Below, in pieces: positions 28,244-47,823 of a stretch of 64,000 nt of DNA. Position numbers and translations under genes: made by a program. Each line of letters starts with the position of its first letter. Within the stretch, counting starts at the first letter, position 1. The notes under the pieces were generated by a model. That model was not told the origin of the DNA. It saw only the letters and a list, made by a program, of their open reading frames with translations, and ran no database searches. Origin of the DNA: an archaeon (lineage in GTDB: Archaea > Micrarchaeota > Micrarchaeia > Norongarragalinales > UBA97); assembly GCA_020057405.1 (NCBI GenBank), contig JAGVFW010000004.1, positions 1 to 64,000 on the forward strand, read 5' to 3'.

Positions 28244-28630
28244 TTAACGCCTTGAAGGGGGTTTTGGCGAAGCGCCGTCGCCGCCAAGCGAAAATCCTTT
28301 TTCGGCCTTGCGCAGCTTGTCCTGCAGCTCGAGCAGGCGGGAGCTTAGCTTCTCCTCTTGCTTGGCGAGCATGCCAGCGCGCAGTTCGAGCGTCTCCTTT
28401 TCAGAAGCGAGGTCTTTTTGCAGCTCGTCCTTTGATTTTGGCACGAGCACATTGCCAACGCTTTTGAAGAACTTGGCGTCGCCTGCGGCCTTGCCAAGCT
28501 CGTCGCCGACTTTTGACATCTCGGCCAGCTGTAGCTGAATTTGCTGCTTTTGCATCAGCACCATCTGGAGCTGCTGCTGGGCGTTCTGGAATTCGTTTAC
28601 GTCTTTTCTGGTTTCGTCACTCATTTCCAT
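28244..28630 (-). CDS. pfdB: Prefoldin beta subunit
   Basis: Q-rich coiled coils around FKSVGNVLV; conserved archaeal neighbourhood. Confidence 0.9.
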   Translation of the reverse strand: MEMSDETRKDVNEFQNAQQQLQMVLMQKQQIQLQLAEMSKVGDELGKAAGDAKFFKSVGNVLVPKSKDELQKDLASEKETLELRAGMLAKQEEKLSSRLLELQDKLRKAEKGFSLGGDGASPKPPSRR

Positions 28631-28677
28631 CTAAAATCACCTGAATAACGAGATAAGGGCGAAAAAGGATTATTAAG

Positions 28678-28914
28678 CTACTTGCGGGTGGCCTTTGTCG
28701 AGTCCAGGAACACTTTTAAGTCACGGAACAGGCTCGTCGTGCGCGCCCGAAGCGCGGCAAAATCCTTGGCAGTAATCACTGCAGTAAAGGCGCTGCCCTT
28801 AGCCGCGTACCTTACTTGCGCGCGGGCGCTCTCGAGACCCTCCGGGGCAACAGCCTTTAGTGCCAGTTTTGCCTGGCTTGCGGACTCCATTGGAACTTCA
28901 ATCTCGGATTTCAT
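28678..28914 (-). CDS. pcc1: KEOPS complex subunit Pcc1
   Basis: 78 aa; A..PE and ITAKDFAALRA..TS motifs; next to pfdB. Confidence 0.8.
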   Translation of the reverse strand: MKSEIEVPMESASQAKLALKAVAPEGLESARAQVRYAAKGSAFTAVITAKDFAALRARTTSLFRDLKVFLDSTKATRK

Positions 28915-30512: not shown

Positions 30513-30514
30513 TA

Positions 30515-30973
30515 CTAGTCACCAGCCAGCCGCAGTATTTTAACCAGTGGGCCGACGGGACGGCCGTCGAGCGAAAAAGAGAGTGAGGAAGAGGATGCGC
30601 TCGCGATGAGTGAGGCATTGGCGTCGGGCTCGACCCCAAGGAGCTCCAGGATTTTGCTGCCCGTCGCGTCTGTTGCAACACCGCCGACTTGCTTGAAGAG
30701 GCGCGGCTTGTCCTCCGGGGCTATGATGCCGGAAAGAATCAGGCTAGGCCGCCATTCATTGCCCTCAAGGAAAGCGAACTTGCGCGGGTTGCCGTGGTCC
30801 TCGCCGATTAGGAGCACGCGGCTAATGCCAAGGGCGTCTGCGCGCTCGACGATTTCGGCAATGCTGCGCTTGCCACGGTTCTCGGACTTGGCTCCAAGCA
30901 AGGCAACGAGCCAATGGACTAGCCTGCGGGTGAGGACTGAAGGCTTTCGGGAGGTGGTAATGTAGAGTGCCAT
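30515..30973 (-). CDS. Brix/Imp4-domain ribosome biogenesis protein
   Basis: ITTSRKPS..TR, RGK.S, GNP motifs; ATG at 30973. Confidence 0.85.
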   Translation of the reverse strand: MALYITTSRKPSVLTRRLVHWLVALLGAKSENRGKRSIAEIVERADALGISRVLLIGEDHGNPRKFAFLEGNEWRPSLILSGIIAPEDKPRLFKQVGGVATDATGSKILELLGVEPDANASLIASASSSSLSFSLDGRPVGPLVKILRLAGD

Positions 30974-30978
30974 TTCAA

Positions 30979-31068
30979 TCAACCGGGCCAGAACTCGCGT
31001 ACGAAGGCAAACACCGAGTAGGCGGCAAGGGCGACTACGGCGAGCCAAATTACTAGACGGAGCTTCAC
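30979..31068 (-). CDS. Putative 29-aa single-TM microprotein (not in ORF track)
   Basis: MKLRLVIWLAVVALAAYSVFAFVREFWPG* with a GTG start; fills the copA-Brix gap. Confidence 0.4.
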   Translation of the reverse strand: MKLRLVIWLAVVALAAYSVFAFVREFWPG

Positions 31069-31096
31069 GCAAGGATTAGGCCGCCCTAGGCTTAAA

Positions 31097-33298
31097 TTAC
31101 TTGAGTGGGGGCTTGTAGAACCGCATCAGGCTCGCGTTCGTCGTCACGGAAACGCTGGAAAGCGCCATTGCCGCACCCGCAATAGCTGGGTTAAGCATAA
31201 AGCCGGTGAATGAATAGAGCACGCCTGCCGCAATTGGAACGCCGACAAGGTTGTAGGCAAAAGCCCAAAACAGGTTCTCCCGGATTTTGCCCATCGTGTA
31301 GCGGCTCAAGTCGATTGCGGTAATCACGTCACGCAAGTCGTTCTTCACAAGCACGATGTCGCCAGCCTCGATGGCCACGTCGGTGCCGCTGCCAATCGCG
31401 ATGCCCACATCAGCAGCCGCTAGCGCTGGCGCGTCGTTGATGCCGTCGCCAACGAAAGCCACTTTGCGGCCTTCAGCCTGGAGCTTGCGCACTTGCGCCT
31501 CCTTCTGTTCGGGAAGAACTTCGGCCAAAACCTCGTCAATTCCCGCTTGGCCGCCAATCGCTGCTGCAGTGCGCTTATTGTCGCCAGTAATCATGGCCAC
31601 GCGCAATCCCATCTTCTTGAGCTGCGTGACAGCAGCAGGAGTAGTGGACTTTATAGTGTCCGCAACCGCAAGAACTCCCGCAACTTTCCCGCCGACTGCA
31701 AGAAGCACTGCAGTCTTGCCTTGGCGCTCAAGTGAGGCGAGTGAGCGCTCTGCAGCCGCGTCCACGCGGACTTTGCCAAACGCCATCAGCTTGCGCGTGC
31801 CGACAAGCACCCGCCTGCCGGAAACCACGGCCTCGACTCCCTTGCCCGAATGAGACTTGAACTTCGAGACTGCCGCAGGCTTGATTCGTCGCGCCTTGAC
31901 GCCAAAAACAATTGCCTCGGCAACCGGATGTTCGGAGTGCATCTCGGCCCCGGCTGCAATCGACAAGAGCTGGTGTTGCGAAAAGCCGCCAAGCGCAACC
32001 ACATCGGTGAGCTTGGGCTTGCCCTCGGTGAGTGTGCCAGTCTTGTCAAACACCACCGTGTCGATATCGCGAGCCGACTGCAGCGCCTTTGATGTCTTGA
32101 AGAGAATGCCGTGCTCAGCACCAAGGCCTGTTCCCATCACGATTGCGGTTGGCGTTGCGAGGCCAAGGGCGCACGGGCAGGCGATGATGAGGACCGCAAC
32201 CGCTGCGGTAAAAGCAAACGGCAGGGTCGCTCCTGCAACGAAATACCAGTAGACAAACGCGAGGGCAGAAACTAGGGCAACCGCGGGCACAAAATACGCG
32301 CTCACCTTGTCAACGAGCTCCTGGATTGGCGCCTTGCTTGCCTGCGCGTCCTGTACCATCTTAATGATTTGGGCGAGCATGGTCTCGCTGCCAACCTTGG
32401 TTGCCTTAAAGCGCAGAAAACCGTTCTTGTTTATGGTCGCACCGATGACGGTGCCGCCCTTTTTCTTGAGAACAGGCATGCTTTCCCCAGTCACCATCGA
32501 CTCGTCAACCGCGCTCTCGCCATCGACGACGATACCGTCAACCGGAATTTTTTCGCCGGGCTTCACAAGGACAATGTCGCCAACGAGAACCTGCTCGATT
32601 GGCACTTCAACCTCGCGGCCCTTGCGCACAACACGGGCAGTCTTTGCCTGCATGCCAATGAGCTTCTTTATCGCCTCGCTCGTGCGACCGCGGGCGCGCG
32701 CTTCGAGGAGCTTGCCAAGCGCGATGAAGGTTAGAAGGAAGGTGGCGACCTCGTAGTAAAGCGCACCCGGGAAACCAAGCGTGGTTGCCACGCTGAAGGC
32801 AAAGGCGGCGCCAACGCCAATGGCAAGAAGCGAGTCCATCGACGGGCTGCCGACGAGAATCGCCTTCGCGCCGCGCACGAAAATCACGCGGTTGACCCAA
32901 AGCACGGCACTAGCGAGCAGCATCTGAGCGATTCCGGCAGAGGGCATTAGCTCCTCTGGCACGAAGGCCGGAACAATCCCCAGTTCGGACAAGAACATAG
33001 CAAAAAGCGGCAGGCTGAGCGCTAGCGAGAACTTGAAGCGGAAGGCGTAAGACGCGATTTCCTTCTCCCGCGCCTCCTTTTCCGTGTCCGTGCCTACTGG
33101 CCACGGCTCGGCGTCAAAGCCCGCGTCAATGACGGCATTGCGCAACTCGTCGAAGGAAGCAGAGCCTTCAACGTCGGCGCGGTCGCCGGCAACGAGGGCG
33201 CTGGAAACGCCTTTTACTGAGCGCAAGGACCGCTCAATTTTAGCCAAGTCGGCTTTTGCTGAAGCGCCCAGTATGTGTAAAACGAGTTTTCCTGCCAT
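31097..33298 (-). CDS. copA: Cu(I)-translocating P1B-1 ATPase
   Basis: TGES, CPC, DKTGT, SEHP, GDGIND, plus the P1B-1 YN and MxxSS motifs. The N-terminal HMA-like domain lacks CxxC. Confidence 0.93.
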
Positions 33299-33306
33299 CG
33301 TAATTC

Positions 33307-33513
33307 TCACACTGCCGTGTCGTAGCCAGCCTTCTTGACTGCCTCGCGTATCTGAGTAGGCGAAGCCGCACGCGGGTCGTAGTCAACAGCCATCTTGCCG
33401 GATGCGAAGCTCACGTCAACCCCGCTAACGCCGGCAACCTTGCCGACAGCCTTCTTAATGGTGGCCGCGCAGCTGGCGCAATCCATTCCGCTTACCTTGA
33501 AATTTGCTTTCAT
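33307..33513 (-). CDS. copZ: CopZ-like HMA metal chaperone
   Basis: [15 protein letters not shown], 68 aa. Confidence 0.9.
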
Positions 33514-33801: not shown

Positions 33802-34722
33802 TTACGAAGCGCCGGCCCAGGCGAAAGCCGCGCGCGGGCCCCAGACGAGCAGGGCGCCGAAAACCGCGAACACCGCGACGTTCGCTGCAATCGACTTTGC
33901 CAATATCGGCACTGACGAAGGCAACACGCTGCCGCCCTCGCGCAACATCATGTACGAAAGGCCAAGCAGGACGAATATGCACGACGCAAACAGGAAAATC
34001 AGGAATAGCAGGACGTTGTCGTTAAAGAGCATCACCGAAAGCATCGCGCCCATTGTCCCGGACATTATGCCCGCCATCAGGCCTTCAAGGATGCCCATCA
34101 CGCCGTTGCGCGCCCCGGCAATTGCGCCCATGCCCATGCCAATAGCCATGCCGACGATCGAGCCAACGAGCATTCCGTTTGCCGCGCCCGAAAGCGCACC
34201 CGCCAAGAAGCCCGCCATCATTCCTATAGTCATGCCTATCATCATCCCACTCATGCACGAGAAGGGCTGCCTAAACGCGCGGAAGTGGATGAGTGCCGTG
34301 CTGCACGCGACAGTGCCCACCGCGGCGAGTGCCAGCAAGGGCACGAAGCGCGGGGAAACAATCTGCAGCACATAAGTTAAGAGAAACAAGCCAGCGAGCA
34401 TGATAAGAAGGGAAAACATCGACGACTCGGCAATGCGCCGCTCGGCGTCAAAGTCCGTCGAGTTCGACAAGAGCTTCCCCAAGAACGCCAGCGGCCTCGC
34501 CATCACGCCCCGGTTGGTGTCGTTCCCGTCAACGCCGTAACCCGCCTCAATCAAGGCCGCCTTTAGGTCGTCGAGTTGGGCGTCCGAATTGACTTCCACC
34601 ACGAGCCGTCCCATTGAATAGTCGATGTCCTTGACGCTAGCGCCAATTCTCTCGACAACCCGCGAGATGACGCGGGCGCACGAATCGCATTCAAGGCCAG
34701 TAAGCCTGAGTTCATGTTCCAA
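33802..34722 (-). CDS. HMA-domain protein fused to a Met-rich multi-TM domain
   Basis: GLECDSC, then MSGMMIGMTIGMMAG, GMAIGMGMG and GLMAGIMSGTMGAM. Confidence 0.8.
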   Translation of the reverse strand: MEHELRLTGLECDSCARVISRVVERIGASVKDIDYSMGRLVVEVNSDAQLDDLKAALIEAGYGVDGNDTNRGVMARPLAFLGKLLSNSTDFDAERRIAESSMFSLLIMLAGLFLLTYVLQIVSPRFVPLLALAAVGTVACSTALIHFRAFRQPFSCMSGMMIGMTIGMMAGFLAGALSGAANGMLVGSIVGMAIGMGMGAIAGARNGVMGILEGLMAGIMSGTMGAMLSVMLFNDNVLLFLIFLFASCIFVLLGLSYMMLREGGSVLPSSVPILAKSIAANVAVFAVFGALLVWGPRAAFAWAGAS

Positions 34723-34930: not shown

Positions 34931-35374
34931 TTAAACTGCCTCCAAAGTCTTATGCAAACCCCAGTACACCAGGGCTACCGAAGCGGCAGCCAGCACGGTG
35001 CCGTAAGCGGAAAGGAAGTAAAGCGACTGCGCGCCCACCAGCCACGCGAGAACCGGCGGGCAGTAGGGGCACGCGCTTGCGAGCAAGCCCACCGAACCCC
35101 CCGCGACCCCAGCCGCGCAGGTCTTTGGGGAAACGCGTTTCAGGTAAAGCCACGCTGCCGCGAGCAAGCCGCTGCCTGCCGCTGCCAGCACCATCAAGAC
35201 TGCAGCCACGGGCTCTATCCCAAGGGGGTTGGACTCCATCGTGCCAAGAATGAAGAAGTTGCCAAGCACCGCGTAGGCTGCCGCAAGCACTATGGTCACG
35301 ACCGCGAAGGCTGCCGCCGGCGCCTTGTGGGATAGTATCCTGCGCAGTTTCGCAAAGTCTTTCAAGCAACTCAA
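34931..35374 (-). CDS. Small Cys-containing membrane protein (MerC/MerT-like architecture)
   Basis: About 4 TM helices; TC...ACPYCPP. Confidence 0.6.
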   Translation of the reverse strand: MSCLKDFAKLRRILSHKAPAAAFAVVTIVLAAAYAVLGNFFILGTMESNPLGIEPVAAVLMVLAAAGSGLLAAAWLYLKRVSPKTCAAGVAGGSVGLLASACPYCPPVLAWLVGAQSLYFLSAYGTVLAAASVALVYWGLHKTLEAV

Positions 35375-35817
35375 CTCGCCTCAAGCACTCCCCGAAACAT
35401 CCTCATCGAGCAGCTGTATTCATATTTGCCTGGCTTGGGGGTGAATTCCGCCACCTGCTCCTCGCCGTTTCGCGAGACCAGCTGCACGCCGAAATCGCGC
35501 ATGATGAAGGCCCTTCCACAGCCCGCGCGGGGGTCTGCAGAGAAGTGCACCCTCACCGGCTCGTTGGCCCTTACTTTTACAGTAGGCTTGTCGTAAACGC
35601 CGGCGTCAAGCGCGCGCAAGTAAATGTCCTGCACGCCGCTAGAGCCCTGCGGGGTTGGCGTTATGCCCTGCTGTGCAGGCGCTTGGCTGGCGTCTTGAGC
35701 GTAGGTGGGCGCAGCCTTAAACGGCCTGGCACCAGCGGTACCCGCAACCATGAACAAGCCGACTACCACCATTACTCCCATGAGTAGCGTTATGAGCGCA
35801 AGATTGCCTTTCAACAT
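35371..35817 (-). CDS. Membrane-anchored cupredoxin-domain protein
   Basis: TM helix plus GC...EFTP.PGKYEYSCSMRM (CupA-like cupredoxin). Confidence 0.85.
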   Translation of the reverse strand: MLKGNLALITLLMGVMVVVGLFMVAGTAGARPFKAAPTYAQDASQAPAQQGITPTPQGSSGVQDIYLRALDAGVYDKPTVKVRANEPVRVHFSADPRAGCGRAFIMRDFGVQLVSRNGEEQVAEFTPKPGKYEYSCSMRMFRGVLEAS

Positions 35818-35871
35818 TTTTCCAATCCCCCGCGGCCGCTTTCCGGCGAGCTTAAATTCTTTTCCACAGTA

Positions 35872-35912
35872 TTTCATTGACTGAAACAATACTTATAGAT
35901 TGGTGAAACAAT
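35872..35912. promoter_or_regulatory. Divergent promoter with candidate operator repeats
   Basis: TTTCA-N5-TGAAA palindrome (35872-35886) and a TGAAACAAT direct repeat (35882, 35904) flanking TTATA. Confidence 0.5.
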
Positions 35913-35938
35913 GTTTTGGAAGGACGGGGAGACGTTTC

Positions 35939-36430
35939 ATGGCCGGAAACTTTAGCTTGCGGCGGCGCGTGGGCCTAGCTGCGGCAGTGGCAGGCGCCTT
36001 TACGCTGCTGTTTACCGTACTCGTGTTTACCTACAGCTTCCCAGCAAGCACACCCGACTCGCTCAAGGTATTCATCATCTACCACTTCGAGTTCATGATA
36101 GCGATGGTTGGCCTCGGCGTCCTCGCCGGCGCGGCAATACTTTACCTGATGGGCGAGGAAGTCAAGCACCAGCACGAGGAATCAAAACTCAACGCCGAGC
36201 TCGCCCTCTCGCTCCTCCACAGCGACGAGCGCAAGGCAATCAAGCTGCTTTTGGAAAAAGACGGGGTTGCCGGCCAGGCGGAAGTCGCGCGCCTCGACGG
36301 GATGACGCGCCTCAAGGCGCACCGGACCGCCAAGAGCCTCTCCGCCCGCGGCCTCGTATCTCTGGAAAGAAACGGCAAGGCCGTCAACCTCAAGCTCGCC
36401 GACAACGTCCTGCAGGCGCTGGCGAAATAA
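35939..36430 (+). CDS. Membrane-anchored winged-HTH transcriptional regulator
   Basis: Two TM helices, then DERKAIKLL..GQAEV..RLKAHR..L..RGLV. Confidence 0.8.
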   Translation: MAGNFSLRRRVGLAAAVAGAFTLLFTVLVFTYSFPASTPDSLKVFIIYHFEFMIAMVGLGVLAGAAILYLMGEEVKHQHEESKLNAELALSLLHSDERKAIKLLLEKDGVAGQAEVARLDGMTRLKAHRTAKSLSARGLVSLERNGKAVNLKLADNVLQALAK

Positions 36431-36431
36431 G

Positions 36432-36692
36432 TTACTTGCGCGAGAGGTGGTTGTAGATTTTCGCGAACGCTGCGCCGGTGACGAGCCCGAAGGCAACCCA
36501 CGCAACGAGGCCGACCGCGAAGCCGCCGGCCGTGGGTAGTTGCGTCGCAAGCACCACGCCGTGAAACATTCCCCGTCCGAGTGCACTCAAAGTGTCAGGA
36601 AACGCGTAAGCAGCAGCCGAACAAATCGCATACCAACCGCCGAGCACTCCTGCCAATGAAACGCCAGCCGCCTTTGCATCCATTCCAGCCAT
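36432..36692 (-). CDS. Small membrane protein (DUF5676-like)
   Basis: YAIC...MFHG...GAAFAKIYN; two TM helices. Confidence 0.65.
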   Translation of the reverse strand: MAGMDAKAAGVSLAGVLGGWYAICSAAAYAFPDTLSALGRGMFHGVVLATQLPTAGGFAVGLVAWVAFGLVTGAAFAKIYNHLSRK

Positions 36693-36802
36693 ACTCAACC
36701 ACCCCGGTTCGCCGGCCTCAAGCGGCCGAACACAATCGCATCATGCCTGGGGCCGCCGCGCAAAAGCGGCCGGAGCACATCAAAACCTGCGCAGCCTGAG
36801 CG

Positions 36803-37567
36803 CTATGCCTTGAATTTTGCAGCTGCGCTGAACTTCGCCTTTGCCGAGGCAACGAAGCGGCCGGTGCCTTGCACACGGTCGGCGTAGCCGTCGGCCGCCA
36901 GCTCGTCGCCAGAAAGGTCGTTGAAGAACGACGGCCGGCTGAACGGGAGGAAGAGGCCGTAGAGAACCGACAAGACCTTGAAGCTTGGGCTCTTGCACGA
37001 AAGGTGGTAAAGCTCATGGAGCGCAACCGCCTCTTGCTCTTTGCGCGTGAGGAGCTCAAGGACGCCAACAGACACCACAATGGTTGGAGAAACCGCAGTC
37101 ATTGAATAAGCGACTGGCGCGTGCACTTGAAGGACCATCAGCCGCGGCGCCGGAATGCCTAGTTTGGCTGCCTCGGCGCGAACAAAAGCGGCGAGCGGAT
37201 TGGCGCGGTCAATAGGCGCGCAATTGAGCGTCCGCAAAGTCGGGATTAGCAGGTAATAGAATGTGAAGGCAAGCACTAGAGATACCGGAAACACTAGGAG
37301 GAAAGTTTGGGAAATGGTGACCGCGCACTCAAGCGAGTGGATTGCCGAACAGCTTAGGCTCAAGGCAAGCAAGGTCAGCGGAAAGGCAACTGCAAGCAGG
37401 TTGAGGAACATCAGGAGGCTCTTGCGCCTGAGATTTGCCTCCTTGCGCACCGCCGAGTAGAGCAGCAGGGCAACCATTATTGAAGAAATGAACAGGCCGA
37501 GCTTAAGCGGGTCGGCGACAAAAGCGCTGACGCCATCAAGCACGTGCTCAACCATCAGGTTGTCCAT
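36803..37567 (-). CDS. M56/M48 membrane zinc protease (BlaR1-like, no penicillin-binding sensor domain)
   Basis: Three TM helices, HELYH and ELAAD; directly follows the BlaI-like gene. Confidence 0.85.
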   Translation of the reverse strand: MDNLMVEHVLDGVSAFVADPLKLGLFISSIMVALLLYSAVRKEANLRRKSLLMFLNLLAVAFPLTLLALSLSCSAIHSLECAVTISQTFLLVFPVSLVLAFTFYYLLIPTLRTLNCAPIDRANPLAAFVRAEAAKLGIPAPRLMVLQVHAPVAYSMTAVSPTIVVSVGVLELLTRKEQEAVALHELYHLSCKSPSFKVLSVLYGLFLPFSRPSFFNDLSGDELAADGYADRVQGTGRFVASAKAKFSAAAKFKA

Positions 37568-37579
37568 TTTGGTTTTTCC

Positions 37580-37969
37580 CTATTTATTATTACTGAATCG
37601 CTCGTTAAAATAGCTGACTGCTGTTGCCCCGAACATGGCCACCAGCCTGTCGGCGACAGTCGCCAAGACCTTCTTCTCCAACTCGTTCTTCGAGCCTGCA
37701 GGCGAGTACAAGTAGTATGTGCCACCCCGGCCCGTAAGCGCCCGCCGCGTGACTAGCCCCTTGTCAAAAAGCCGGTCGAGCAGCACTGCTACGCTAGTCA
37801 CCGCCGCCTTTGAGCGCAGCTTCAAGTGCACCTCGCGCACGCGCATTGGCGACTGGCTAGTGCAAAGCACGTCGAGGATTTCGCCCTCAAGCGGGCCGAG
37901 GAAAGAGTCGAAAGACTGCTTGCTACCGCCACGAGCGAGTCTGATGTTGTTCAGCCTTACCATAACCAT
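37580..37969 (-). CDS. BlaI/MecI/CopY-family repressor
   Basis: LGPLE.EILDVL..VREV..TSVAVLLDRLFDKGLVTR..YLY. Confidence 0.9.
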   Translation of the reverse strand: MVMVRLNNIRLARGGSKQSFDSFLGPLEGEILDVLCTSQSPMRVREVHLKLRSKAAVTSVAVLLDRLFDKGLVTRRALTGRGGTYYLYSPAGSKNELEKKVLATVADRLVAMFGATAVSYFNERFSNNK

Positions 37970-38012
37970 CCAACTCTTACATACACTTCTTGCACACACC
38001 ACTATTAAAGAC

Positions 38013-38059
38013 TTACTGCTTCAGTAAAGCTTATATATTAGCTATTACAAGATATGTAA
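38013..38059. promoter_or_regulatory. Two TTAC-N7-GTAA palindromes flanking a TATA element; probable BlaI/CopY operators
   Basis: TTACTGCTTCAGTAA (38013-27), TTATATATTA (38031-40), TTACAAGATATGTAA (38045-59). Confidence 0.65.
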
Positions 38060-38117
38060 GACTTACAAGCGCGCGTTGCTTTGGCTTGGTTTGTTTGAAA
38101 AAAAAGGTGATGGGAAT

Positions 38118-38942
38118 ATGGGTGAATCGGGTTCGCACAATGATGAGGAAAAGACGCACCACGGAGGCGGGCTTCTTAGTTCCAACAAACTGTTTTACGC
38201 ACTCGCAATCGCAGTGTTTGCGGTCCTCGCCTTCAACCAAATACAGCTTTCTTCACTAAATGCCGCGGCTGCTTCACAGGCAATCCTGCTAAGCTCACAG
38301 CAGCAAATCGCGGCAGCGCAGTCCCAGGTGGCGGCACAAGCCCAGCCGGCGGCAGCGCAGGCCCAGGCAGCGGCCGCCCCGGTCCAGGCCGGTAGCACGG
38401 TAAACCTGCAGGAACTCGCAGACAAGGTGATTCCCCAGGGCGTGCCGGCAATCTACGGCACGGAGCTTGGCGTCACATATAGCGACCCCGTAAACAGCAT
38501 GAACACACTTGCTGCCCTCGACGACGGCAAGGGATTGCCTGACACTATCCAGAACCAGCGGTACGTAAGCATCGCATCACAGATGGCCTGCGAATACTGC
38601 TGCGGGGCAAATACGCTTATTGCCGGGGATGGCAGCGCGGCTTGCGGGTGCGCGCACAGCTACGCAATGAGGGGCCTGGCAAAGTACCTTGTTGTGAAGC
38701 ACGGTTCCGAATTCACTGACGAGCAGATTCTCGCGGAGCTGGGCAAGTGGAAGACGCTGTTCTTCCCCAAGCAAATCCTGACGAAAGCCATTGAGTTCTC
38801 TTCGGCTGGCAAGGACATCAGCATCATCGACCTTACCAGCAACGAGTTCCGCGGCTTTACGGCGCCGGCGCAGGCAGCGTCGGGCGGCCAGTCGGCAGTC
38901 GGCAGCATCGCCAACCTGCCAAACATGGTCGGCGGATGCTGA
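38118..38942 (+). CDS. Membrane-anchored Cys-rich protein (CEYCC...CGCAH) ending in NLPNMVGGC
   Basis: GGTGA SD; His-rich N-terminus, TM helix, Q/A linker, Cys cluster. Confidence 0.8.
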   Translation: MGESGSHNDEEKTHHGGGLLSSNKLFYALAIAVFAVLAFNQIQLSSLNAAAASQAILLSSQQQIAAAQSQVAAQAQPAAAQAQAAAAPVQAGSTVNLQELADKVIPQGVPAIYGTELGVTYSDPVNSMNTLAALDDGKGLPDTIQNQRYVSIASQMACEYCCGANTLIAGDGSAACGCAHSYAMRGLAKYLVVKHGSEFTDEQILAELGKWKTLFFPKQILTKAIEFSSAGKDISIIDLTSNEFRGFTAPAQAASGGQSAVGSIANLPNMVGGC

Positions 38943-38945
38943 GGG

Positions 38946-39059
38946 ATGCGATGCAAGAAGTGCGGTAAGCAGTTCCTCGCGTGCTGCGGGGACGAAGCCG
39001 GGCAATGCCGCGAGTGCGACCCAACCCGGCGACAAAGTTCAAAAAAATGGGAGGAATGA
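38946..39059 (+). CDS. 37-aa CxxC/CxxC microprotein (not in ORF track)
   Basis: MRCKKCGKQFLACCGDEAGQCRECDPTRRQSSKKWEE*; fills the intergenic gap almost exactly. Confidence 0.65.
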   Translation: MRCKKCGKQFLACCGDEAGQCRECDPTRRQSSKKWEE

Positions 39060-39063
39060 TTGA

Positions 39064-39387
39064 ATGGACAAAGGACTGGTAAACGGAATGCTGGTGCTCT
39101 TGCTGCTCGTAAGCGGCTTTGAGGCCATGGAGCTCAATTCGATTAAGGGAACGCTGTCCACACAACAGACGCAGGCACTACCCTTTGCGCTGGCATCTGC
39201 GCAAAGCGCGCAGTTAGTGCAGGCGGCCAGCTCAAGCGGCGGTGGCGAGACTTACGACCAGATGATGGCGCGCATGCACCCCGAACAGGCCGCACAGCAG
39301 CAGGCCCAGACGGCCCAAGCGGTAGCGGCTTCGGGTGGCGCGGCTAGTGCGCTGAACAACTTGCCCAACATGGTCGGCGGCTGCTAA
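39064..39387 (+). CDS. Membrane-anchored protein with MMARMH motif ending in NLPNMVGGC
   Basis: GGAGG SD; TM helix; ETYDQMMARMHP; tail identical to 38118..38942. Confidence 0.8.
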   Translation: MDKGLVNGMLVLLLLVSGFEAMELNSIKGTLSTQQTQALPFALASAQSAQLVQAASSSGGGETYDQMMARMHPEQAAQQQAQTAQAVAASGGAASALNNLPNMVGGC

Positions 39388-39462
39388 AGCCCCGGGGGGG
39401 CCCAATTTCCCTCTTTTTGGGGATTAACGCAAAGAACGAAAAAATTCGAGGTAGTGGAAACT

Positions 39463-40047
39463 ATGAAAATCGCTTTGGTCGCCCTTCTGGGCTTGTTGCT
39501 GGCAATCTCTGGCGCAGCTAGCGCTTACGCCGGCCCGCAGGTGGTGGTTTACAACAACGAGGCCTGCGGCCACTGCCAGCCGTACGTCAACGAGCTTACC
39601 GCCGGCCTCAAGGCAACAGGCTTTGGCGACATCGAAGTGAGGCAGTTCATCAACAACGAGAGCGTGCGCGCCGAGCTCTCCTCGCTGCAGGCCTCGCGGA
39701 AAGTGCCGCTTGAAATGCAGGGCCACCTTGTCGCGTCAGTTGAAGGCGGCAAGTACTTGTTCGAGGGCCACGTGCCGGTCGCACTCGTCACTGACTTCCT
39801 CAAGAACAAGGCCAAGGACTATCCTGGCGGCATTGTCGTAACCCTTGACTCAATGACAAGCGAGGGGCCGTACAAGGTCTTCGACGGCAGGCAAGTCCGC
39901 GAATTTTCTCCCGGCCAGCCCATAGGCTCTTCAGGCGGCCTGCAGGCAGAAGGTTCTGGAATCGGAGACTACGCCCTTCCTTTCCTGATTATCGCGGCGC
40001 CCCTCGCGCTTTTGGCCCTTGCGGCTAACGGTGGTAAAAATGAATAG
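39463..40047 (+). CDS. Exported thioredoxin-fold, CopG/DUF411-like metal protein with C-terminal TM anchor
   Basis: Signal peptide; CGHC, MQGH and YLFEGHVP motifs. Confidence 0.65.
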   Translation: MKIALVALLGLLLAISGAASAYAGPQVVVYNNEACGHCQPYVNELTAGLKATGFGDIEVRQFINNESVRAELSSLQASRKVPLEMQGHLVASVEGGKYLFEGHVPVALVTDFLKNKAKDYPGGIVVTLDSMTSEGPYKVFDGRQVREFSPGQPIGSSGGLQAEGSGIGDYALPFLIIAAPLALLALAANGGKNE

Positions 40048-40774
40048 GAAAAACTTGGCAATAATTGGCGTGGCCGCGTTTCTTGCGGCTACTATCCTGG
40101 CGTTTTCGGGAAGCCTCCTTGCAACGGTTCTAGTTGCGGGCTTCCTTGACGGCATCCACCCGTGCGGCATTGGCGTGCTGTTGTTCTTCGCTGCCTTCCT
40201 GCTCTCGATAAGGAAAGCGCGGCGCGACATACTGGTTGCCGGAGGCGTTTACATCGCAGGCGTGTTCCTCGCCTACCTGCTCATCGGCCTAAGTATAATG
40301 AAGGCCGCGACTTTCTTCCCTCCAATGTTCATGGGCCAACTTAGCGCGGTTCTCCTAGCGGCATTGGGGTTGCTTACCGCAAGGGATGCCCTCGCCGGCA
40401 CCCAAACGCTCAAACTCCCGTCCTTCTCGCGTCCCTGGATACAGGACCTCATCCAAAAAGCCACGCTACCGGCTGCCCTAGCGGCTGGAGTGGTAGTCGG
40501 GCTCTGCGCGTTTCCGTGCGCAGGCGGGATTTACGTAGCCATAATAGGTCTGCTTGCGTCGCGGGTGGACTTCGCGTCAAGCCTTTCTTACCTAGTCGCT
40601 TACAACCTCGCGTTCGTACTTCCACTGGTCTTCCTCTTGTTGGCCGCAACCAACCGGCGGATGGTGGAAAAACTCGAGGCCGCAGAGAGGGCCAACAGGA
40701 AGACGTACAAGCTTGTCTTCGCGGCCGTGCTGCTAGCGCTGGCCGTGGCAGTTTACCTTGGAACCGTGGGATGA
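40040..40774 (+). CDS. CcdA/DsbD-like transmembrane electron transporter
   Basis: DGIHPC and LCAFPCAGGIY motifs; 6-7 TM helices. Confidence 0.8.
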   Translation: MNRKNLAIIGVAAFLAATILAFSGSLLATVLVAGFLDGIHPCGIGVLLFFAAFLLSIRKARRDILVAGGVYIAGVFLAYLLIGLSIMKAATFFPPMFMGQLSAVLLAALGLLTARDALAGTQTLKLPSFSRPWIQDLIQKATLPAALAAGVVVGLCAFPCAGGIYVAIIGLLASRVDFASSLSYLVAYNLAFVLPLVFLLLAATNRRMVEKLEAAERANRKTYKLVFAAVLLALAVAVYLGTVG

Positions 40775-40783
40775 GAAACCCAA

Positions 40784-40912
40784 ATGCCAACCTGCAAATC
40801 GTGCAAAAAATATTACTGGCTCTGCGGAGACTACGAGAACTTGTGCGCGGAATGCATCCGGGCGCGGGTCAAGCGCAAGATCAGCGCAGCTAACGGAGGC
40901 TCACGCGGATGA
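40784..40912 (+). CDS. 42-aa CxxC/CxxC microprotein (not in ORF track)
   Basis: MPTCKSCKKYYWLCGDYENLCAECIRARVKRKISAANGGSRG*; ATGA overlap with the next gene. Confidence 0.65.
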   Translation: MPTCKSCKKYYWLCGDYENLCAECIRARVKRKISAANGGSRG

Positions 40913-41499
40913 AGAAAACGCGAGCCCAACAACGTCCCGAGCGCATGAAGCAAGCGAAGGCCAAGCGGCGGCAGGGATGGCTCGAATGGATGGGAATAGC
41001 TCCCAACGCGGCGGCTGCAGCTGGTTTTGCAGGAATGCTTCTAGTGTACTTCGGCACGCTTAGCCTGTTCAACTCGCCCAGCCACGCGCTCGCGCAGTTT
41101 CGTGGCGACTGGTGGTGGGTGCTCGCGTTTGCCGCTGGAATGGCGGGCCAACTGTGGCTAAGCGTGAAAATCCACGCGAGCACGGCGGCCACGGGCGCTT
41201 CGGCCGGCACTTCAACAGGCACGATGATTGCCTGCTGCGCCCACCACATAACTGACTTAGCGCCACTTGCGGGCGCGGCTTTCCTGGCGGGCCTGTTCGA
41301 CAAGTACCAGCCGCTTTTCATCGGCATCGGCCTGCTTTCAAACGCAGTCGGCCTTTCGCTGCTTCTAAGCCACGCGCAAGAACAAGAGCTCAAAGTGCCG
41401 TTCGCCCGCTTGCTTGACTGGACCCGCGCGTGGAAGTTCGAGGCGGCAATAGGGGCGGGCCTGCTGGCAGCCCTGGCGTTCAAGCTTTACCTTGCGTGA
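40909..41499 (+). CDS. Membrane protein with MIACCAHH motif
   Basis: 4-5 TM helices with a Cys/His cluster. Confidence 0.75.
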   Translation: MKKTRAQQRPERMKQAKAKRRQGWLEWMGIAPNAAAAAGFAGMLLVYFGTLSLFNSPSHALAQFRGDWWWVLAFAAGMAGQLWLSVKIHASTAATGASAGTSTGTMIACCAHHITDLAPLAGAAFLAGLFDKYQPLFIGIGLLSNAVGLSLLLSHAQEQELKVPFARLLDWTRAWKFEAAIGAGLLAALAFKLYLA

Positions 41500-41532
41500 C
41501 AAAACTTGAAGAGAAAAAAAGAGGTGCGGAAA

Positions 41533-41874
41533 ATGGGTGAAGAACTGATGAAATACGCGATGGTGGCAATCGCCATTGCAACGCTGGCATTCGCAGTGTT
41601 TTCGTTTGGAACGCCTGCGGCGCAGCCTGTCGCAGGACAAGCAAACAACATTGCGCTACAGCAAAAACAGGTCTGGCAAGGAGTGTCGAGCACAAGCGCC
41701 TCTGCGGTCCAGACCCAGGCTTTGGACAATAGCCAATGCGGCGACTTGAACGACGACGCCAACGTCCAGCACTTGGGCCACCACCCTGGCCAATATGCAG
41801 CCTGCCTCAAGCAAGTTGACCCGGCGGTGCTAAAGAAGGCAACTGGCAAGACGCTCGGCCAGCTCATCGGGTAA
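41533..41874 (+). CDS. Membrane-anchored protein with C...QHLGHHP...C motif
   Basis: GAGGTG SD, TM helix, His cluster between two Cys. Confidence 0.75.
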   Translation: MGEELMKYAMVAIAIATLAFAVFSFGTPAAQPVAGQANNIALQQKQVWQGVSSTSASAVQTQALDNSQCGDLNDDANVQHLGHHPGQYAACLKQVDPAVLKKATGKTLGQLIG

Positions 41875-41879
41875 GGCAC

Positions 41880-42878
41880 ATGGGTTTCGGCCGCGGCGGC
41901 TTGCCGGCATTCGCGTTTTTCGCAGCACTAGCCGTGCTTGCCGGAGCCGTGGTTTTTGCATTGGCGAGCCTGCAGCAGCAAAAACCCGCGGGTTTCGAGC
42001 AAGCGCAGGCATTGCAGGCCGACATTTCGGCAGGCGATGGGCGCGTCAATACCAAGCTACCAAATGCTTTTAGCGCGACGCCAAGGCCAGCCTCGTCCGC
42101 GGAACCTGCCGGGAAGTGGGATGGCCTTTACGAGGAAATCGCCCCGGCGGCGGGAGTGACGCTGCCGGCAAAGTGGGGCGACGCCGGCCCCAAGCTAGTC
42201 TCAAGCGGGGCGTTAAACTACTCGTTGTTCGCGGCCTCGATGAAGCGAAGCGGCCGGCCGCTCTTGAAGGAGCAGGAAAAAATACTGCTTGAAGGAAGCG
42301 AAGACAACATTACAATTAGCCGCGAAAATCGCCTCTTTGTCTTAAACGTCTTGTGGGCCCTTGGCTTGGCGAACAAGAATCCGGTCCTCACCCACGGGCC
42401 GCTCTCGAACACGCCTTCAGTGGCAATAGGGCAGTTCGCAAGCACTGGCGGCTGGAGCCTGGGCTCCCGCGATTCAGTCGAGCTTGTTTCGTCTTCAGGC
42501 ATCGTCAGCCTCACTCAAGAACAGCAGAAACTGGTTGAGCGCGTGGCGAAGGAAACCTATCGGCCTTGCTGCGACAATCCGACCTTCTTTCCCGACTGCA
42601 ACCACGGCATGGCCGCCCTTGGGCTTGCGGAACTGCTTGCTTCCCAAAACGCTTCAGAGGAACAAATTCTCGCAGCAGTGCTTTACGCCAACAGCTACTG
42701 GTTCCCGCAGGCTTACGCGGACATTGCCGAGCACTTCAAGGAAAATGGGATTGCGTGGAAGGACGTCGGGCCGGGAGTTGCGCTGGCCGCGAATTACTCA
42801 AGCGCAAGCGGCCATTCGCGCATACTCAGGCAACTAAAAGAAAAGCCCGCCTTGACGCCAGAGGCAAGCGGGTGCTGA
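41880..42878 (+). CDS. Membrane-anchored protein with PCC...DCNHGMA motif, ending in SGC
   Basis: 332 aa with an N-terminal TM helix and a Cys/His cluster. Confidence 0.8.
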   Translation: MGFGRGGLPAFAFFAALAVLAGAVVFALASLQQQKPAGFEQAQALQADISAGDGRVNTKLPNAFSATPRPASSAEPAGKWDGLYEEIAPAAGVTLPAKWGDAGPKLVSSGALNYSLFAASMKRSGRPLLKEQEKILLEGSEDNITISRENRLFVLNVLWALGLANKNPVLTHGPLSNTPSVAIGQFASTGGWSLGSRDSVELVSSSGIVSLTQEQQKLVERVAKETYRPCCDNPTFFPDCNHGMAALGLAELLASQNASEEQILAAVLYANSYWFPQAYADIAEHFKENGIAWKDVGPGVALAANYSSASGHSRILRQLKEKPALTPEASGC

Positions 42879-42906
42879 CGGTAAATTGCATTGGAGGGGG
42901 AATTCA

Positions 42907-43116
42907 GTGGTTTTGGAAAAACTTTGGGAATCAGTGAAGAAGAACCATTTTGCGCAAATGGCAATCTGCTGCGCGCTGCCGATAGTGGTAATCTTCGCGC
43001 TTGAGGCGATGGGCTATACCGGCGGCTGGGTTTTTGCGATTGCCATAGCCGTTTGCGTGGGCTCGCACATCGTCATGTCTTACTTTGCTTCAAAGGAGGG
43101 GAAAACATGCCACTAG
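42907..43116 (+). CDS. Small two-TM Cys/His/Met protein (DUF2933-like)
   Basis: H..QMAICC, CVGSHIVM, C-terminal TCH; GGAGG SD. Confidence 0.65.
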   Translation: MVLEKLWESVKKNHFAQMAICCALPIVVIFALEAMGYTGGWVFAIAIAVCVGSHIVMSYFASKEGKTCH

Positions 43117-43232
43117 AACTTGGGAAGTATCGGCCGTGGGTTGAAAACGGCTTCTGGATACTGGTGTTCGCAGTCGTCTACATTGCCATGCAAAAGGTTA
43201 TGCACCCGGGCTGGACGCTCTTAGGGTACTAG
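43107..43232 (+). CDS. 41-aa single-TM microprotein (not in ORF track)
   Basis: MPLELGKYRPWVENGFWILVFAVVYIAMQKVMHPGWTLLGY*; GGAGGG SD. Confidence 0.55.
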   Translation: MPLELGKYRPWVENGFWILVFAVVYIAMQKVMHPGWTLLGY

Positions 43233-43248
43233 AAGGGGAGGTGGGAAA

Positions 43249-43290
43249 ATGCCTGAAAAGAAATCTAGGAAAAAACACGGTTGCTGCTAG
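43249..43290 (+). CDS. Putative 13-aa peptide MPEKKSRKKHGCC
   Basis: Strong GGAGGTG SD directly upstream; followed by a hairpin. Confidence 0.4.
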   Translation: MPEKKSRKKHGCC

Positions 43291-43306
43291 GGGCAAGGGA
43301 GGCCGC

Positions 43307-43335
43307 CCGCCTTCGTCACAAAACGGCGAAGGCGG
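43307..43335 (+). other. GC-rich stem-loop at the end of the operon
   Basis: CCGCCTTCGTC-ACAAAAC-GGCGAAGGCGG (11-bp stem with one G-U pair). Confidence 0.55.
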
Positions 43336-45902: not shown

Positions 45903-46030
45903 CGCCGGGAGGGAGATTCGAACTCCCGAGCCCGTGAGGGCACTGGTTGTCTTGTTAGAAAGCCGAAATCCCGTTTGTAGGGCGTTAGGCTATTTCAAGA
46001 CCAGCGCGATAACCACTCTGCCATCCCGGC
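45903..46030 (-). tRNA. tRNA-Ser(TGA) with a 45-nt intron at position 37/38 (45949..45993)
   Basis: Acceptor stem GCCGGGA/TCCCGGC, discriminator G, anticodon arm CTGGT-CTTGAA^A-ACCAG, long variable arm, GTTCGAATC T-loop. CCA is not encoded. Confidence 0.93.
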
Positions 46031-46188: not shown

Positions 46189-47823
46189 GTGAAAAAAACC
46201 CTAGATTTATTCAGCCCCGCAAAACTCTCGCTCGCTTACTGGAAGCAGGACGCGATTGCGGGCGCTATTGTCGCCGTCGTGGCAATACCCCTTTGTTTGG
46301 CTCTTGCAATCGCTTCGGGCGTGCCACCAGTCTACGGCGTCTACACCTCAATCATCGCCGGCATCATCGTCGCCTTCTTCGGCGGCACCGAACTCGGCGT
46401 CGCGGGACCCGCAGCTGCGATGACGGTGCTGCTTTACGCGACCGTAACTAAATTCGGTTTTGAGGGCCTGATGCTGGCGGGTTTGATCGCCGGCCTCATA
46501 CAAATCGGCATGGGCATCACCGGCATCGGCCGCGTCGTCAAGTTCGTCCCCTACACAGTCATCGTCGGCTTCACCACAGGCATCGGCTTTCTAATCATCA
46601 TCGGCCAGGCTGCAAACTTCCTTGGCGTTAATCCAACCGGCGACGGCGTGCTTGAGAAGGCGGTTTCGCTAGTCACTCGCGTTGGCAGCACTGACTTGCC
46701 CACCCTGGGGCTTGCGGCAGGCACTCTTGCGCTCATCTTTGTCCTCCGCCGGCTCGTCCCCAAGGTACCGGCATCGTTTGCCGCACTCGTCATCGCGTCG
46801 GTCGCCGCAACCGCAGCCGGCTTGCACGTCAAGACAATAGGCACCGTGCCCGCCCAGCTTCCGTCAATCATGGTGCCGCCAGTCACTTTCGGCCTCCTTG
46901 GCGCAATCCTGCCGGCGGCGCTCGCTATCGCCTTGCTTGCAAGCATCGAAAGCCTGCTCTCGGCCGTGTCAGCCGACGGCATGATGGGCACCAAGCACAG
47001 TTCCAGCAAGGAGCTCGTCGGCCAGGGCATTGCAAACGTCATCCTGCCGTTCTTTGGCGCCATCCCCTCGACGGGCGTGATTGTGCGCACTGCGACAAAC
47101 ATCAAAAATGGAGGCAAGACACGGCTCTCCGCAATAATCCATTCACTCGTGCTCCTCCTCGTGCTCCTCTTGCTAAGCCCGCTTGCCTCCGCCATCCCGA
47201 TGGCGGTGCTGGCCGCAATTCTAGTCTACACCGCCCTGCACTTGATTTCAGTCGACGAAATCAAGCACTTCGCCGCCGACAGCAAGGGCGATTCCGCCGT
47301 CCTTGCAGCGACTGTGGGCGCAACAGTCTTTCTTGACTTGCCGACTGCAATCCTGATGGGCTTTACTTTGGCCGGCCTGGCGTTCATGAAGAAGATGAGT
47401 GAGACGGTCGAAGTGACGCTCGTGCCCCAGGCGGCCCCCGCAAGCGAGGCGACGACGCTGGCGCCGGACGTCGAAGGAATCGCAAGGACTTACCGCATTA
47501 GCGGGGCGCTCTTCTTCGGTTCTGCGGTAGAGCTTGAGAAAATCGCCGAGGAAACGCCGGAGAAGCAGACTCCCGCCCTTGTCCTTGACTTATTGCAGGT
47601 CGACTACGTCGACTCCTCCTCGCTCGCCATACTCGCCGGATTGGCCGAGAAGCACAAGAGGAAAGGCGAGGTCTACATTGCGGTGACGAACGCTACGGTG
47701 AAGCGAAAGATACTCAACTCCAGCGTGATGAAGTCCGTCGACCCCTACAACCTCGTCTCAAGCGTGCAGGAGGGGCTGACGAAGGCAAAGCAAAAGTACG
47801 GCGGGGCGGCAAAGTTCGGCTGA
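46189..47823 (+). CDS. SulP/SLC26 anion transporter with STAS domain
   Basis: DAIAG..V..VAIP, GPAAAM, ESLLSA, ELVGQGIAN, C-terminal GALFFG..VDSS. Confidence 0.93.
   Translation: MKKTLDLFSPAKLSLAYWKQDAIAGAIVAVVAIPLCLALAIASGVPPVYGVYTSIIAGIIVAFFGGTELGVAGPAAAMTVLLYATVTKFGFEGLMLAGLIAGLIQIGMGITGIGRVVKFVPYTVIVGFTTGIGFLIIIGQAANFLGVNPTGDGVLEKAVSLVTRVGSTDLPTLGLAAGTLALIFVLRRLVPKVPASFAALVIASVAATAAGLHVKTIGTVPAQLPSIMVPPVTFGLLGAILPAALAIALLASIESLLSAVSADGMMGTKHSSSKELVGQGIANVILPFFGAIPSTGVIVRTATNIKNGGKTRLSAIIHSLVLLLVLLLLSPLASAIPMAVLAAILVYTALHLISVDEIKHFAADSKGDSAVLAATVGATVFLDLPTAILMGFTLAGLAFMKKMSETVEVTLVPQAAPASEATTLAPDVEGIARTYRISGALFFGSAVELEKIAEETPEKQTPALVLDLLQVDYVDSSSLAILAGLAEKHKRKGEVYIAVTNATVKRKILNSSVMKSVDPYNLVSSVQEGLTKAKQKYGGAAKFG

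Follow-up and report, generated by a model that had tools for sequence, protein, structure and literature searches.

What could an archaeon do with a tightly packed set of genes for membrane-anchored proteins rich in Cys and His motifs, placed opposite a repressor gene and a membrane protease gene? This question is raised by a 64,000-nucleotide stretch of DNA, hereafter the window (contig JAGVFW010000004.1 of assembly GCA_020057405.1, positions 1 to 64,000), in which the region 36432-43335 contains this gene set, the main genes of which we call A to J. The host is a DPANN archaeon, for which homologue searches gave Micrarchaeota as the closest named relatives, and its genome comprises 1.22 Mb on 17 contigs with 55.8% G+C. 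A first interpretation made from the letters alone, referred to here as the sequence-only reading, had proposed an undescribed extracytoplasmic system for the capture, reduction or storage of copper, supplied with electrons through CcdA. Based on the follow-up analysis described below, we consider it somewhat better than an even bet that the locus encodes a copper-induced surface thiol/Cu(I) relay, which is kept reduced by a CcdA-like and a CopG-like protein, and which forms a copper-stress regulon of this archaeon.

A DUF5676 gene, the protease gene and the repressor gene lie on the minus strand, and A to J run divergently from them on the plus strand (38118-43232), with inter-gene gaps of -29 to 121 nt, and GGAGG/GGTG-type motifs upstream of most operon starts. 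The arrangement put forward in the sequence-only reading, a BlaI-type repressor and an M48/M56-like protease divergent from packed open reading frames (ORFs), was borne out, with 10-11 ORFs between 38118 and 43290, and every Cys/His motif named there was found at the ORF concerned. Conservation of the ligand residues was checked for A, C, D, F, G, H, and I, and they were kept, except that in C they are replaced. For comparison of neighbourhoods, genes were called and clustered in 80 other loci, together 1.08 Mb, which with the window makes 81 loci; contig ends cut many of these loci, and all neighbour counts given here are minima. The expected co-occurrence was also found, with the order BlaI - protease - A ... 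H present in 6 related archaeal loci.

The proteins on which our interpretation hinges are A and H. A (38118..38942, plus strand) is a single-pass surface protein with one predicted helix, the motifs CEYCC and CGCAH, and a C-terminal MVGGC, and H (41880..42878, plus strand) is an anchored surface protein with the motif YRPCCxNPTxFPDCNHG (PCC...CNH) that ends in SGC. The two share a CC...CxH domain of ~100 residues (hhalign 95.9%, E 6e-9). The small anchored protein B (39064..39387, plus strand) carries the motif MMARMH and ends in MVGGC as well, and among the 9931 ORFs of the genome A, B, and H are the only ones that end in G-[GS]-C. A single N-terminal helix was predicted for A, B, G, and H, which we took to indicate a surface location. 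The N-terminal tail of A (38118-38170), ahead of the helix, is His-rich here and in several relatives (A family alignment A2); it is presumably cytoplasmic, and may contain a second metal site.

Both families are large. A has 1524 homologues, with all source names seen being those of DPANN archaea, and its profile hits 327 clusters at 50% identity; CEYCCG...ACGCxHS and the C-terminal MVGGC are conserved. The motif C..CC..C.C.H was present in 118 of the 120 top A homologues, and a terminal GGC in 111 of them. H has more than 3050 relatives among 8000 candidates scored, with an identity of ~45-55% between archaeal and bacterial members, and a genome scan confirmed at least 442 H stretches, in Micrarchaeota, Iainarchaeia, Patescibacteria, and Chloroflexota. 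YRPCCxNPTxFPDCNHG hardly varies among H proteins: PCC..CxH was found in 120/120 top H homologues and in 81/81 loci, and a Cys within the last 4 residues in 116 of those 120, the tail being Gly-rich; some H relatives have lipobox-like sequences. A, B, F, and H matched no family in Pfam (E <= 0.01) or NCBIfam (E <= 0.1), and the only Pfam domain in the 120 listed relatives of H was rhodanese, in 15 of them. This agrees with the statement in the sequence-only reading that most components have no known function, and so do G and I, which gave only NCBIfam rows below the cut-offs. In a literature search, with supplements outside its scope, neither the A/H family nor a BlaI-type copper switch of archaea turned up. 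Two rare fusions were also seen: P0342 combines the A-type domain with an FKBP-type prolyl isomerase domain (46.9 bits), and in P0246 H is joined to a BNR/Asp-box-like region that scores under the Pfam cut-off.

The link to copper made in the sequence-only reading turned out to be strong, and comes from the CopA neighbourhood and from CopA-H fusion proteins. Within seven genes of H, we found CcdA/DsbD-like genes in 45 of the 81 loci, CopA in 39, DUF1573 in 28, CsoR-like genes and AhpC/TSA redoxin genes in 18 each, cupredoxin-like genes in 17, and CopG-like genes in 9. The labels DUF1573, redoxin, ICMT-like, and DsrE-like derive from Pfam scans of cluster representatives, and the labels CsoR-like and YHS-like were given by reading representative sequences, with no family scan. 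Five P1B ATPases (P0241-P0245) are fused to H. The two that were read, P0241 and P0242, continue C-terminally of the ATPase with one more membrane helix and an entire H domain; CPC is found in P0241, and CPH together with a PF19335 domain in P0242. The topology of these fusions implies that H is located outside, beside the pump. A fusion of H with a CPxC membrane domain was found in at least 12 proteins, and the window homologue of this domain stands alone in the CopA arm. Among 151 genomes sampled in the phylum, H was found in 10 and CopA in 95; all 10 H-positive genomes also have CopA, and in 5 of these 10 the two genes lie within 10 kb. H is an accessory gene, patchily spread. No multicopper oxidase or Cus-type system was recognised in the neighbourhoods examined.

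The same neighbourhoods bear on the idea that the exported copper is delivered rather than disposed of, with H and A handing it from the pump to a surface protein such as the anchored cupredoxin-like protein. The cupredoxin-like genes in 17 of the 81 loci would fit such a role, and a precedent is CueP, which is fed by CopA and helps to metallate SodC (PMC10907172). However, the CsoR-like repressors and HMA chaperones found nearby are typical of detoxification, and no copper enzyme was recognised among the window ORFs scanned, and we rate copper supply as very improbable. As a separate observation (L017 9270-9788, L011 1320-1763, and other loci), Patescibacteria have a cassette of genes for a 137-amino-acid membrane protein, a DUF1573 protein, a CcdA-like protein, a protein X, and H. 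In some cases X is a helical protein with CC-D-E at its end, and in others a CPxC membrane protein with CC at its end; therefore, terminal cysteines recur on unrelated proteins. An ICMT-like methyltransferase gene (a cluster of 7) lies within seven genes of H in 5 loci.

That the operon adjoins a CopA efflux arm, as had been proposed, was confirmed. CopA (31097..33310, minus strand), the Cu(I) P1B-type ATPase of this arm, reaches 609.1 bits for TIGR01511, whose cut-off is 397, and has a CPC motif (ACPCALG); three HMA-domain proteins lie alongside it. The arm also contains the CPxC membrane protein (34931..35374, minus strand), which matched the N-terminal domain of P0091 (BLASTP, E 4e-6), and an anchored cupredoxin-like protein (35371..35889, minus strand; PF13473, 29.0 bits against a cut-off of 27). 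In the CPxC membrane protein, C102-P-x-C105 is invariant in alignment A3; a complex prediction of this window protein with the H ectodomain gave a score of 0.00 and no verdict either way. The subfamily assignment of the pump is relevant for the possibility that the locus deals with another thiophilic metal: silver, mercury or cadmium. The CC pairs in helices of F and I and the Cys tails resemble features of mercury-transport proteins, but the pump passes the cut-off of the Cu(I) subfamily, TIGR01511, and there is no mercuric reductase, the oxidoreductase encoded after the operon reaching 54 bits for MerA against a cut-off of 454. We give a metal other than copper a very slight chance.

Two other proteins of this neighbourhood were noted. 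At 33802-34722 (minus strand), an HMA domain is fused to a membrane domain of ~8 helices rich in Met-Gly repeats, and among the 80 loci it has a match only in L007, beside CopA. At 35900-36430 (plus strand), a membrane protein with two helices, followed by a winged-helix domain, is encoded divergently from the cupredoxin - CPxC - HMA - CopA arm, and the same divergent winged-helix arrangement is present in L007 (13654-14244). This membrane-bound winged-helix protein is likely a separate regulator of the pump arm.

Keeping surface cysteines available for Cu(I) would require a source of electrons, for which C and D are the candidates. C (39454..40047, plus strand) is a divergent CopG/DUF411-like protein of the thioredoxin type, with CGHC, EGHVP, and a C-terminal membrane helix. 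Its score for DUF411 was 22.8 bits (cut-off 27), a comparison to PDB sequences gave nothing meaningful, and its cluster includes bacterial members with CGCC and GMPxGSPGMP. The CopG/DUF411 assignment of the sequence-only reading therefore stands as far as the clustering with CopG-like members goes, and falls short in score and in the absence of CxCC. D (40019..40774, plus strand) overlaps C by 29 nt, and is a polytopic, CcdA/DsbD-like protein whose membrane helices contain Cys49 and Cys167. Within its cluster, P48-C49 is kept in 50 of 54 members and C167 in all 54, and both cysteines are invariant in alignment A5. D had no match among PDB sequences and gave only weak matches to SfLAP (23.8 bits, Pfam) and ArsG (25.3 bits, NCBIfam); of 14 aligned members of its cluster, 5 match DsbD_TM and 2 match DsbD_2 in Pfam. 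The CcdA claim is likewise upheld in part: both membrane cysteines are present, but D itself reaches no DsbD/CcdA model of Pfam.

The AlphaFold2 (AF2) model of the H domain had a pLDDT of 95 and a pTM of 0.92. The best match of the H profile to PDB sequences was at E 0.71, and Foldseek searches of the PDB with full-length and domain-only models of H returned no match at E <= 0.001. In an exhaustive structure alignment of the H domain against 48,161 chains, only 44 chains reached Z >= 2 and no chain reached Z >= 5; the top one was the periplasmic domain of CcmH (PDB 2hl7; Z 4.6, root mean square deviation 3.0, 77/82 residues), followed by a chain with Z 3.0. We treat this model-based match as a weak lead, and not as a classification. 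It is nevertheless the basis of the main rival of a copper relay, in which D and C would supply electrons to A and H, and these two, as thiol-disulfide oxidoreductases of the CcmH kind, would reduce or reshuffle wrong disulfides formed through copper catalysis in surface proteins, in the manner of Scs/DsbC-type systems. The full-length model gave the same top match, the gene order, with a CcdA-like protein first, a thioredoxin-like protein second and a CcmH-like domain third, resembles that of the reducing pathway in cytochrome c maturation, and the AhpC/TSA-type redoxins within seven genes of H (18/81 loci) would suit such a pathway. However, a Z of 4.6 is weak by the guidance of the tool, the CxxC of CcmH is replaced by CC...CxH and a terminal Cys, and the CopA fusion is easier to explain by the handling of exported metal. 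For these reasons, we regard disulfide repair as unlikely, though deserving serious attention.

Control of the operon by a BlaI-like protein, as the sequence-only reading had it, is supported by a conserved operator. The repressor (37580..38002, minus strand) is a winged-helix protein of the BlaI/MecI/CopY family (PF03965, 44.2 bits against a cut-off of 22.6, residues 35-134), whose true start is probably at 37969 or 37963, and its best match among PDB sequences was 2g9w (E 0.001). In the CopY subtype, a C-terminal Cys cluster binds metal directly. The repressor described here has Cys only at positions 3, 8, and 47, and its C-terminal half is free of Cys, as it is in 7 relatives; therefore, it is no direct metal sensor of the CopY type.

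Just upstream of A lies a TATA-like element, TTATATATT (38031..38039, plus strand), which was read from the sequence as a putative promoter element, and just downstream of it a candidate operator, TTACA-N5-TGTAA-N3-TTACA (38045..38067), with its dyad at 38045-38059. TTACA-N5-TGTAA occurs once in the window, with shuffles averaging 0.54 sites when one mismatch was allowed, and once in the 1.22 Mb genome. The 80 other loci contain 8 sites, all within the 6 archaeal loci that carry BlaI next to A, and 6 of these 8 are located in the BlaI-A intergenic region, so that every one of the 6 related loci has one there. L005 and L007 have the form with three half-sites as well. An additional dyad in L022 and L033 precedes a second operon, which encodes a G-like protein, a 290-amino-acid protein, I, J, an AhpC/TSA-type redoxin, and a DsbD-like protein, with further genes for a small His/Cys-rich protein, a YHS-like protein, and a small CxxC protein. 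The shared repressor site thus joins A, B-like, H, F, G, I, and J and the reducing pathway in one regulon, in two archaeal lineages. The cop box, TACAnnTGTA, has 0 sites in the window.

The protease (36803..37567, minus strand; 254 amino acids), whose gene starts 12 nt downstream of the repressor gene, is an M48/M56-like membrane zinc protease with a HELYH motif, which resembles PetP and BlaR1 and is devoid of a sensor domain. No penicillin-binding sensor was found, as the protein ends at residue 254 and scores 12 bits for blaR1_generic against a cut-off of 400. HExxH is kept in 8/8 relatives; NCBIfam gave weak HtpX rows, and PDB sequences an HtpX fragment (E 0.065). Three helices were predicted with confidence, with a K/R-rich first loop and the HExxH domain after the helices, and according to this topology the first loop and the HExxH domain should be cytoplasmic. 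The predicted loop between helices 2 and 3 contains C73, H77, and C81, with the Cys pair kept in 5/8 relatives, and is predicted to face outwards. In Iainarchaeia, the protease gene is directly followed by a gene for a Zn-ribbon protein of ~50 amino acids (CExCG...CExWC...CNLEI). This family, c23, lies beside the protease gene in L022 (7379-7534), L033 (7426-7590), and L034 (4212-4358), is fused N-terminally to the CPxC-H proteins P0247 and P0248, and was not found in the host genome (tblastn, E 0.01).

The remaining products of the operon are mostly small. A B-like family, c43, with a helix, a linker and MVGGC, follows A in L022 and L034, and aligned with B (hhalign 86.9%). E (40784..40912, plus strand) is a putative ORF for a 42-amino-acid Cys ribbon, which matched no family; L001, the relative with the closest synteny, has nothing like it between D and F. 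F (40909..41499, plus strand) is a membrane protein with CCAHH in a hydrophobic stretch; its family has 18 members in the loci, with the motif M(I/V)ACC(A/T)H(H/Y), i.e. CC-x-H-[HY], it is encoded within seven genes of H in 13/81 loci, and the Atlas gave hypothetical clusters only. A kinship between F and the CPxC membrane domain was considered and rejected, as BLASTP was not significant and the hhalign probability was 5.3%. G (41506..41874, plus strand) is an anchored His-rich protein with HLGHH and the pattern CGD...HL(G/S)HHP...C; it is conserved in L005 and L007, and G-like ORFs come first in the second operator-controlled operon of L022 and L033. G matched no Pfam family, and two NCBIfam rows were far under their cut-offs.

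I (42886..43116, plus strand) is a small membrane protein whose first helix contains CC and which ends in K-x-C-H (TCH). It is conserved in L001, L007, L022, and L033, and matched no Pfam family, with one NCBIfam row of 15 bits far under the cut-off. After I follows J (43107..43232, plus strand), a 41-amino-acid protein with GGAGG 9 nt upstream of its start, which had tblastn matches in L001, L007, L022, and L033, and no family in a scan of Pfam alone. A putative micro-ORF, MPEKKSRKKHGCC, of 13 codons (43249..43290, plus strand) ends in HGCC and has GGAGGTG before its ATG. This motif is among the best of the operon, and a 9-bp stem-loop lies downstream; the micro-ORF was not found downstream of J in L001, L007, L022, and L033. 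The stem-loop, a perfect inverted repeat of 9 bp 3' of the operon (43307..43335, plus strand), is a putative terminator. Several possible relationships between small families remained below 30% hhalign probability: G-c14, I-c5, I-c24, c19-c42, F-c5, C-c3, C-c7, G-c10, and those of c19, c42 or c5 with the CPxC domain.

A mechanism that would connect these components is as follows. The repressor would bind TTACA-N5-TGTAA(-N3-TTACA) at the promoter of A, as suggested by the architecture and the conserved site. The protease would sense copper outside the cell, or thiol oxidation driven by copper, by means of its Cys-His-Cys loop, and would then destroy the repressor, as the cyanobacterial protease PetP does with PetR. 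The tethered proteins A, B, and H, once made, may acquire Cu(I) on the outside of the membrane through their CC...CxH thiols and Gly-Cys tails, with H placed where copper leaves the CopA pump. The His-rich G, and F and I with their CC motifs in helices, might join the same relay, and J would be made alongside. D could pass reducing equivalents across the membrane to C, and together they would keep the cysteines reduced and metal-competent in an oxidising, copper-rich surface layer. The regulon adjoins the CopA/HMA/cupredoxin export arm and would be regulated separately from it.

Several observations weigh against this copper relay. Copper binding by A, B, and H is a prediction, and the sole structural hint, the match to CcmH with Z 4.6, suggests a thiol-disulfide oxidoreductase over a metal carrier. 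The presence of H in 10 and of CopA in 95 of the 151 genomes means that H is not required for CopA function, and 5 of the 10 genomes with H carry CopA on a different contig. C lacks the CxCC motif of CopG and has CGHC instead, D had no match to DsbD_TM (PF02683) or DsbD_2 (PF13386) at E <= 0.01, and the count of CcdA/DsbD-like neighbours pools three subtypes. The protease scores under the Pfam cut-offs (PF05569, 21.8 against 31; PF01435, 17.9 against 20.3), and 3 of its 8 relatives miss the loop cysteines and have His instead. Finally, there are hints of sulfur chemistry, namely the 15 rhodanese-H fusions among the 120 listed relatives, the DsrE-like genes within seven genes of H in 6 loci, and an NDH-2-like gene in 3/80 loci. 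Taken as an explanation of their own, these hints would make H a carrier of sulfane sulfur on its cysteines, which might serve to capture copper in the form of a sulfide or to handle reactive sulfur species. The rhodanese domain is N-terminal in these fusions and was confirmed in P0069 (36.9 bits), the DsrE-like genes point the same way, and a gene for a pyridine-nucleotide disulfide oxidoreductase follows the operon. However, H of the window has no rhodanese domain, the oxidoreductase is found in those 3 loci only and reaches no specific NCBIfam cut-off, and copper genes dominate the neighbours of H; we therefore consider sulfur or persulfide trafficking quite improbable. A copper relay remains the interpretation that we favour.

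Some further features of the region stand apart from the relay. The NDH-2-like and TerC-like (DUF475) genes that the sequence-only reading placed after the operon are present, but are not conserved neighbours, and were rejected as members of the unit with matches in 3/80 and 0/80 loci, respectively (tblastn). At the other end, the DUF5676 gene (36432..36698, minus strand) encodes a two-helix membrane protein (PF18926, 58 bits against a cut-off of 27.6); its family occurs within seven genes of H in 8/81 loci, and the small family c24 aligns with it (hhalign 93.7%). Rfam gave a tRNA match at 45903-46030 (minus strand; 41.8 bits), and ARAGORN found none in the whole window; the tRNA is probably intron-bearing, because the Rfam match spans 128 nt. 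The flanks 28244-31072 and 46189-47823 are ordinary, with genes for a prefoldin subunit, an Na+/H+ exchanger, a 185-amino-acid ORF without family, and a transporter of the SulP/STAS sulfate-permease family.

What would such a system mean for its hosts? In model bacteria, work on copper in the envelope has dealt with multicopper oxidases and Cus-type systems. Ultra-small archaea and bacteria (DPANN, Patescibacteria) live with one membrane and a very small set of genes. The A/H family, which lies beside the pump and is sometimes fused to it, with strictly conserved cysteines and thousands of members, is therefore a strong candidate for dealing with exported copper in these organisms. With the proposed regulation, the copper-triggered repressor-protease switch, known so far from work on cyanobacteria, would also operate in archaea, on an archaeal-type promoter. 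A more far-reaching version, which we offer tentatively and would not bet on, is that A and H have a fold of their own and form a new class of proteins that assist copper P-type ATPases on the exit side. The tethered ectodomain, by means of its CC...CxH site and a flexible terminal Gly-Cys 'fishing line', would receive Cu(I) straight from the pump, and a CcdA-fed reductase would recycle it. The family is spread over several hundred species, which belong to the ultra-small archaea and bacteria and to Chloroflexota, and in archaea a PetP-like protease that senses outside copper would switch it on.

Among studied systems, ScsB/ScsC with CueP of Salmonella comes closest in its logic, with a DsbD-family reductase, a thioredoxin-fold protein, and a Cys-based Cu(I) protein that can be loaded from CopA (PMC10907172). 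The two would have in common a copper-induced envelope system in which a membrane reductase feeds a thioredoxin-fold protein, and a Cys-based protein that can receive Cu(I) from the pump. They differ in that H and A are unrelated to CueP in sequence and fold (no Pfam family matched), in that D is a small CcdA-like core that lacks the periplasmic domains of ScsB, in their regulation, and in that the host has a single membrane and its proteins are tethered by helices. CcmH, a helical thiol protein outside the cytoplasm, receives its electrons by way of a CcdA/DsbD-type protein and then a thioredoxin-like protein, as H would. CcmH (2hl7) is the best match of the H domain, with a Z of 4.6 that is under the level the tool deems reliable, whereas identity is 8%, and H is three times larger and has no CxxC. 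C resembles CopG/DUF411 in its EGHVP region and in clustering with bacterial members that have CGCC and GMPxGSPGMP, but differs in its CGHC, its C-terminal helix, the absence of the Met-rich motif, and a score below the cut-off.

Operators of the BlaI/MecI/CopY family consist of TACA/TGTA half-sites with N2 spacing. BlaI/BlaR1 (MecI/MecR1) of staphylococci and CopY of Firmicutes share with the window system the Penicillinase_R domain, half-sites of the TACA/TGTA type, and a zinc protease as partner, whereas the window system lacks both a penicillin-binding sensor and the Cys cluster of CopY, and has an N5 spacer. The regulator pair itself is not of an undescribed kind, since PetR/PetP of the cyanobacterium Synechocystis sp. 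PCC 6803 is of the same kind. The preprint on this pair describes PetR as a BlaI/CopY-family factor and PetP as an M48/M56 protease without BlaR sensor, reports that degradation of PetR requires both PetP and copper, and proposes two Met in the loop between helices 2 and 3 of PetP as copper ligands (bioRxiv 10.1101/2020.07.31.226407). The differences are the host, an archaeon here; Cys/His/Cys in the window loop in place of two Met; half-sites TTACA/TGTAA in place of GAC/GTC; the lack of a predicted fourth, C-terminal helix in the window protease; and a regulon of surface Cys proteins and a reducing pathway, where PetR/PetP controls plastocyanin and cytochrome c6. The response to copper was studied in the cyanobacterium and is proposed here by analogy. 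What the two pairs share is a BlaI-type gene beside a sensor-less protease, helices followed by a cytoplasmic HExxH domain, and an inverted-repeat site with an N5 spacer; the loop between helices 2 and 3 may hold soft-metal ligands in both, although the Cys pair of the window protease varies among its relatives. By this analogy the regulator pair of the window is an archaeal variant of the known PetR/PetP switch.

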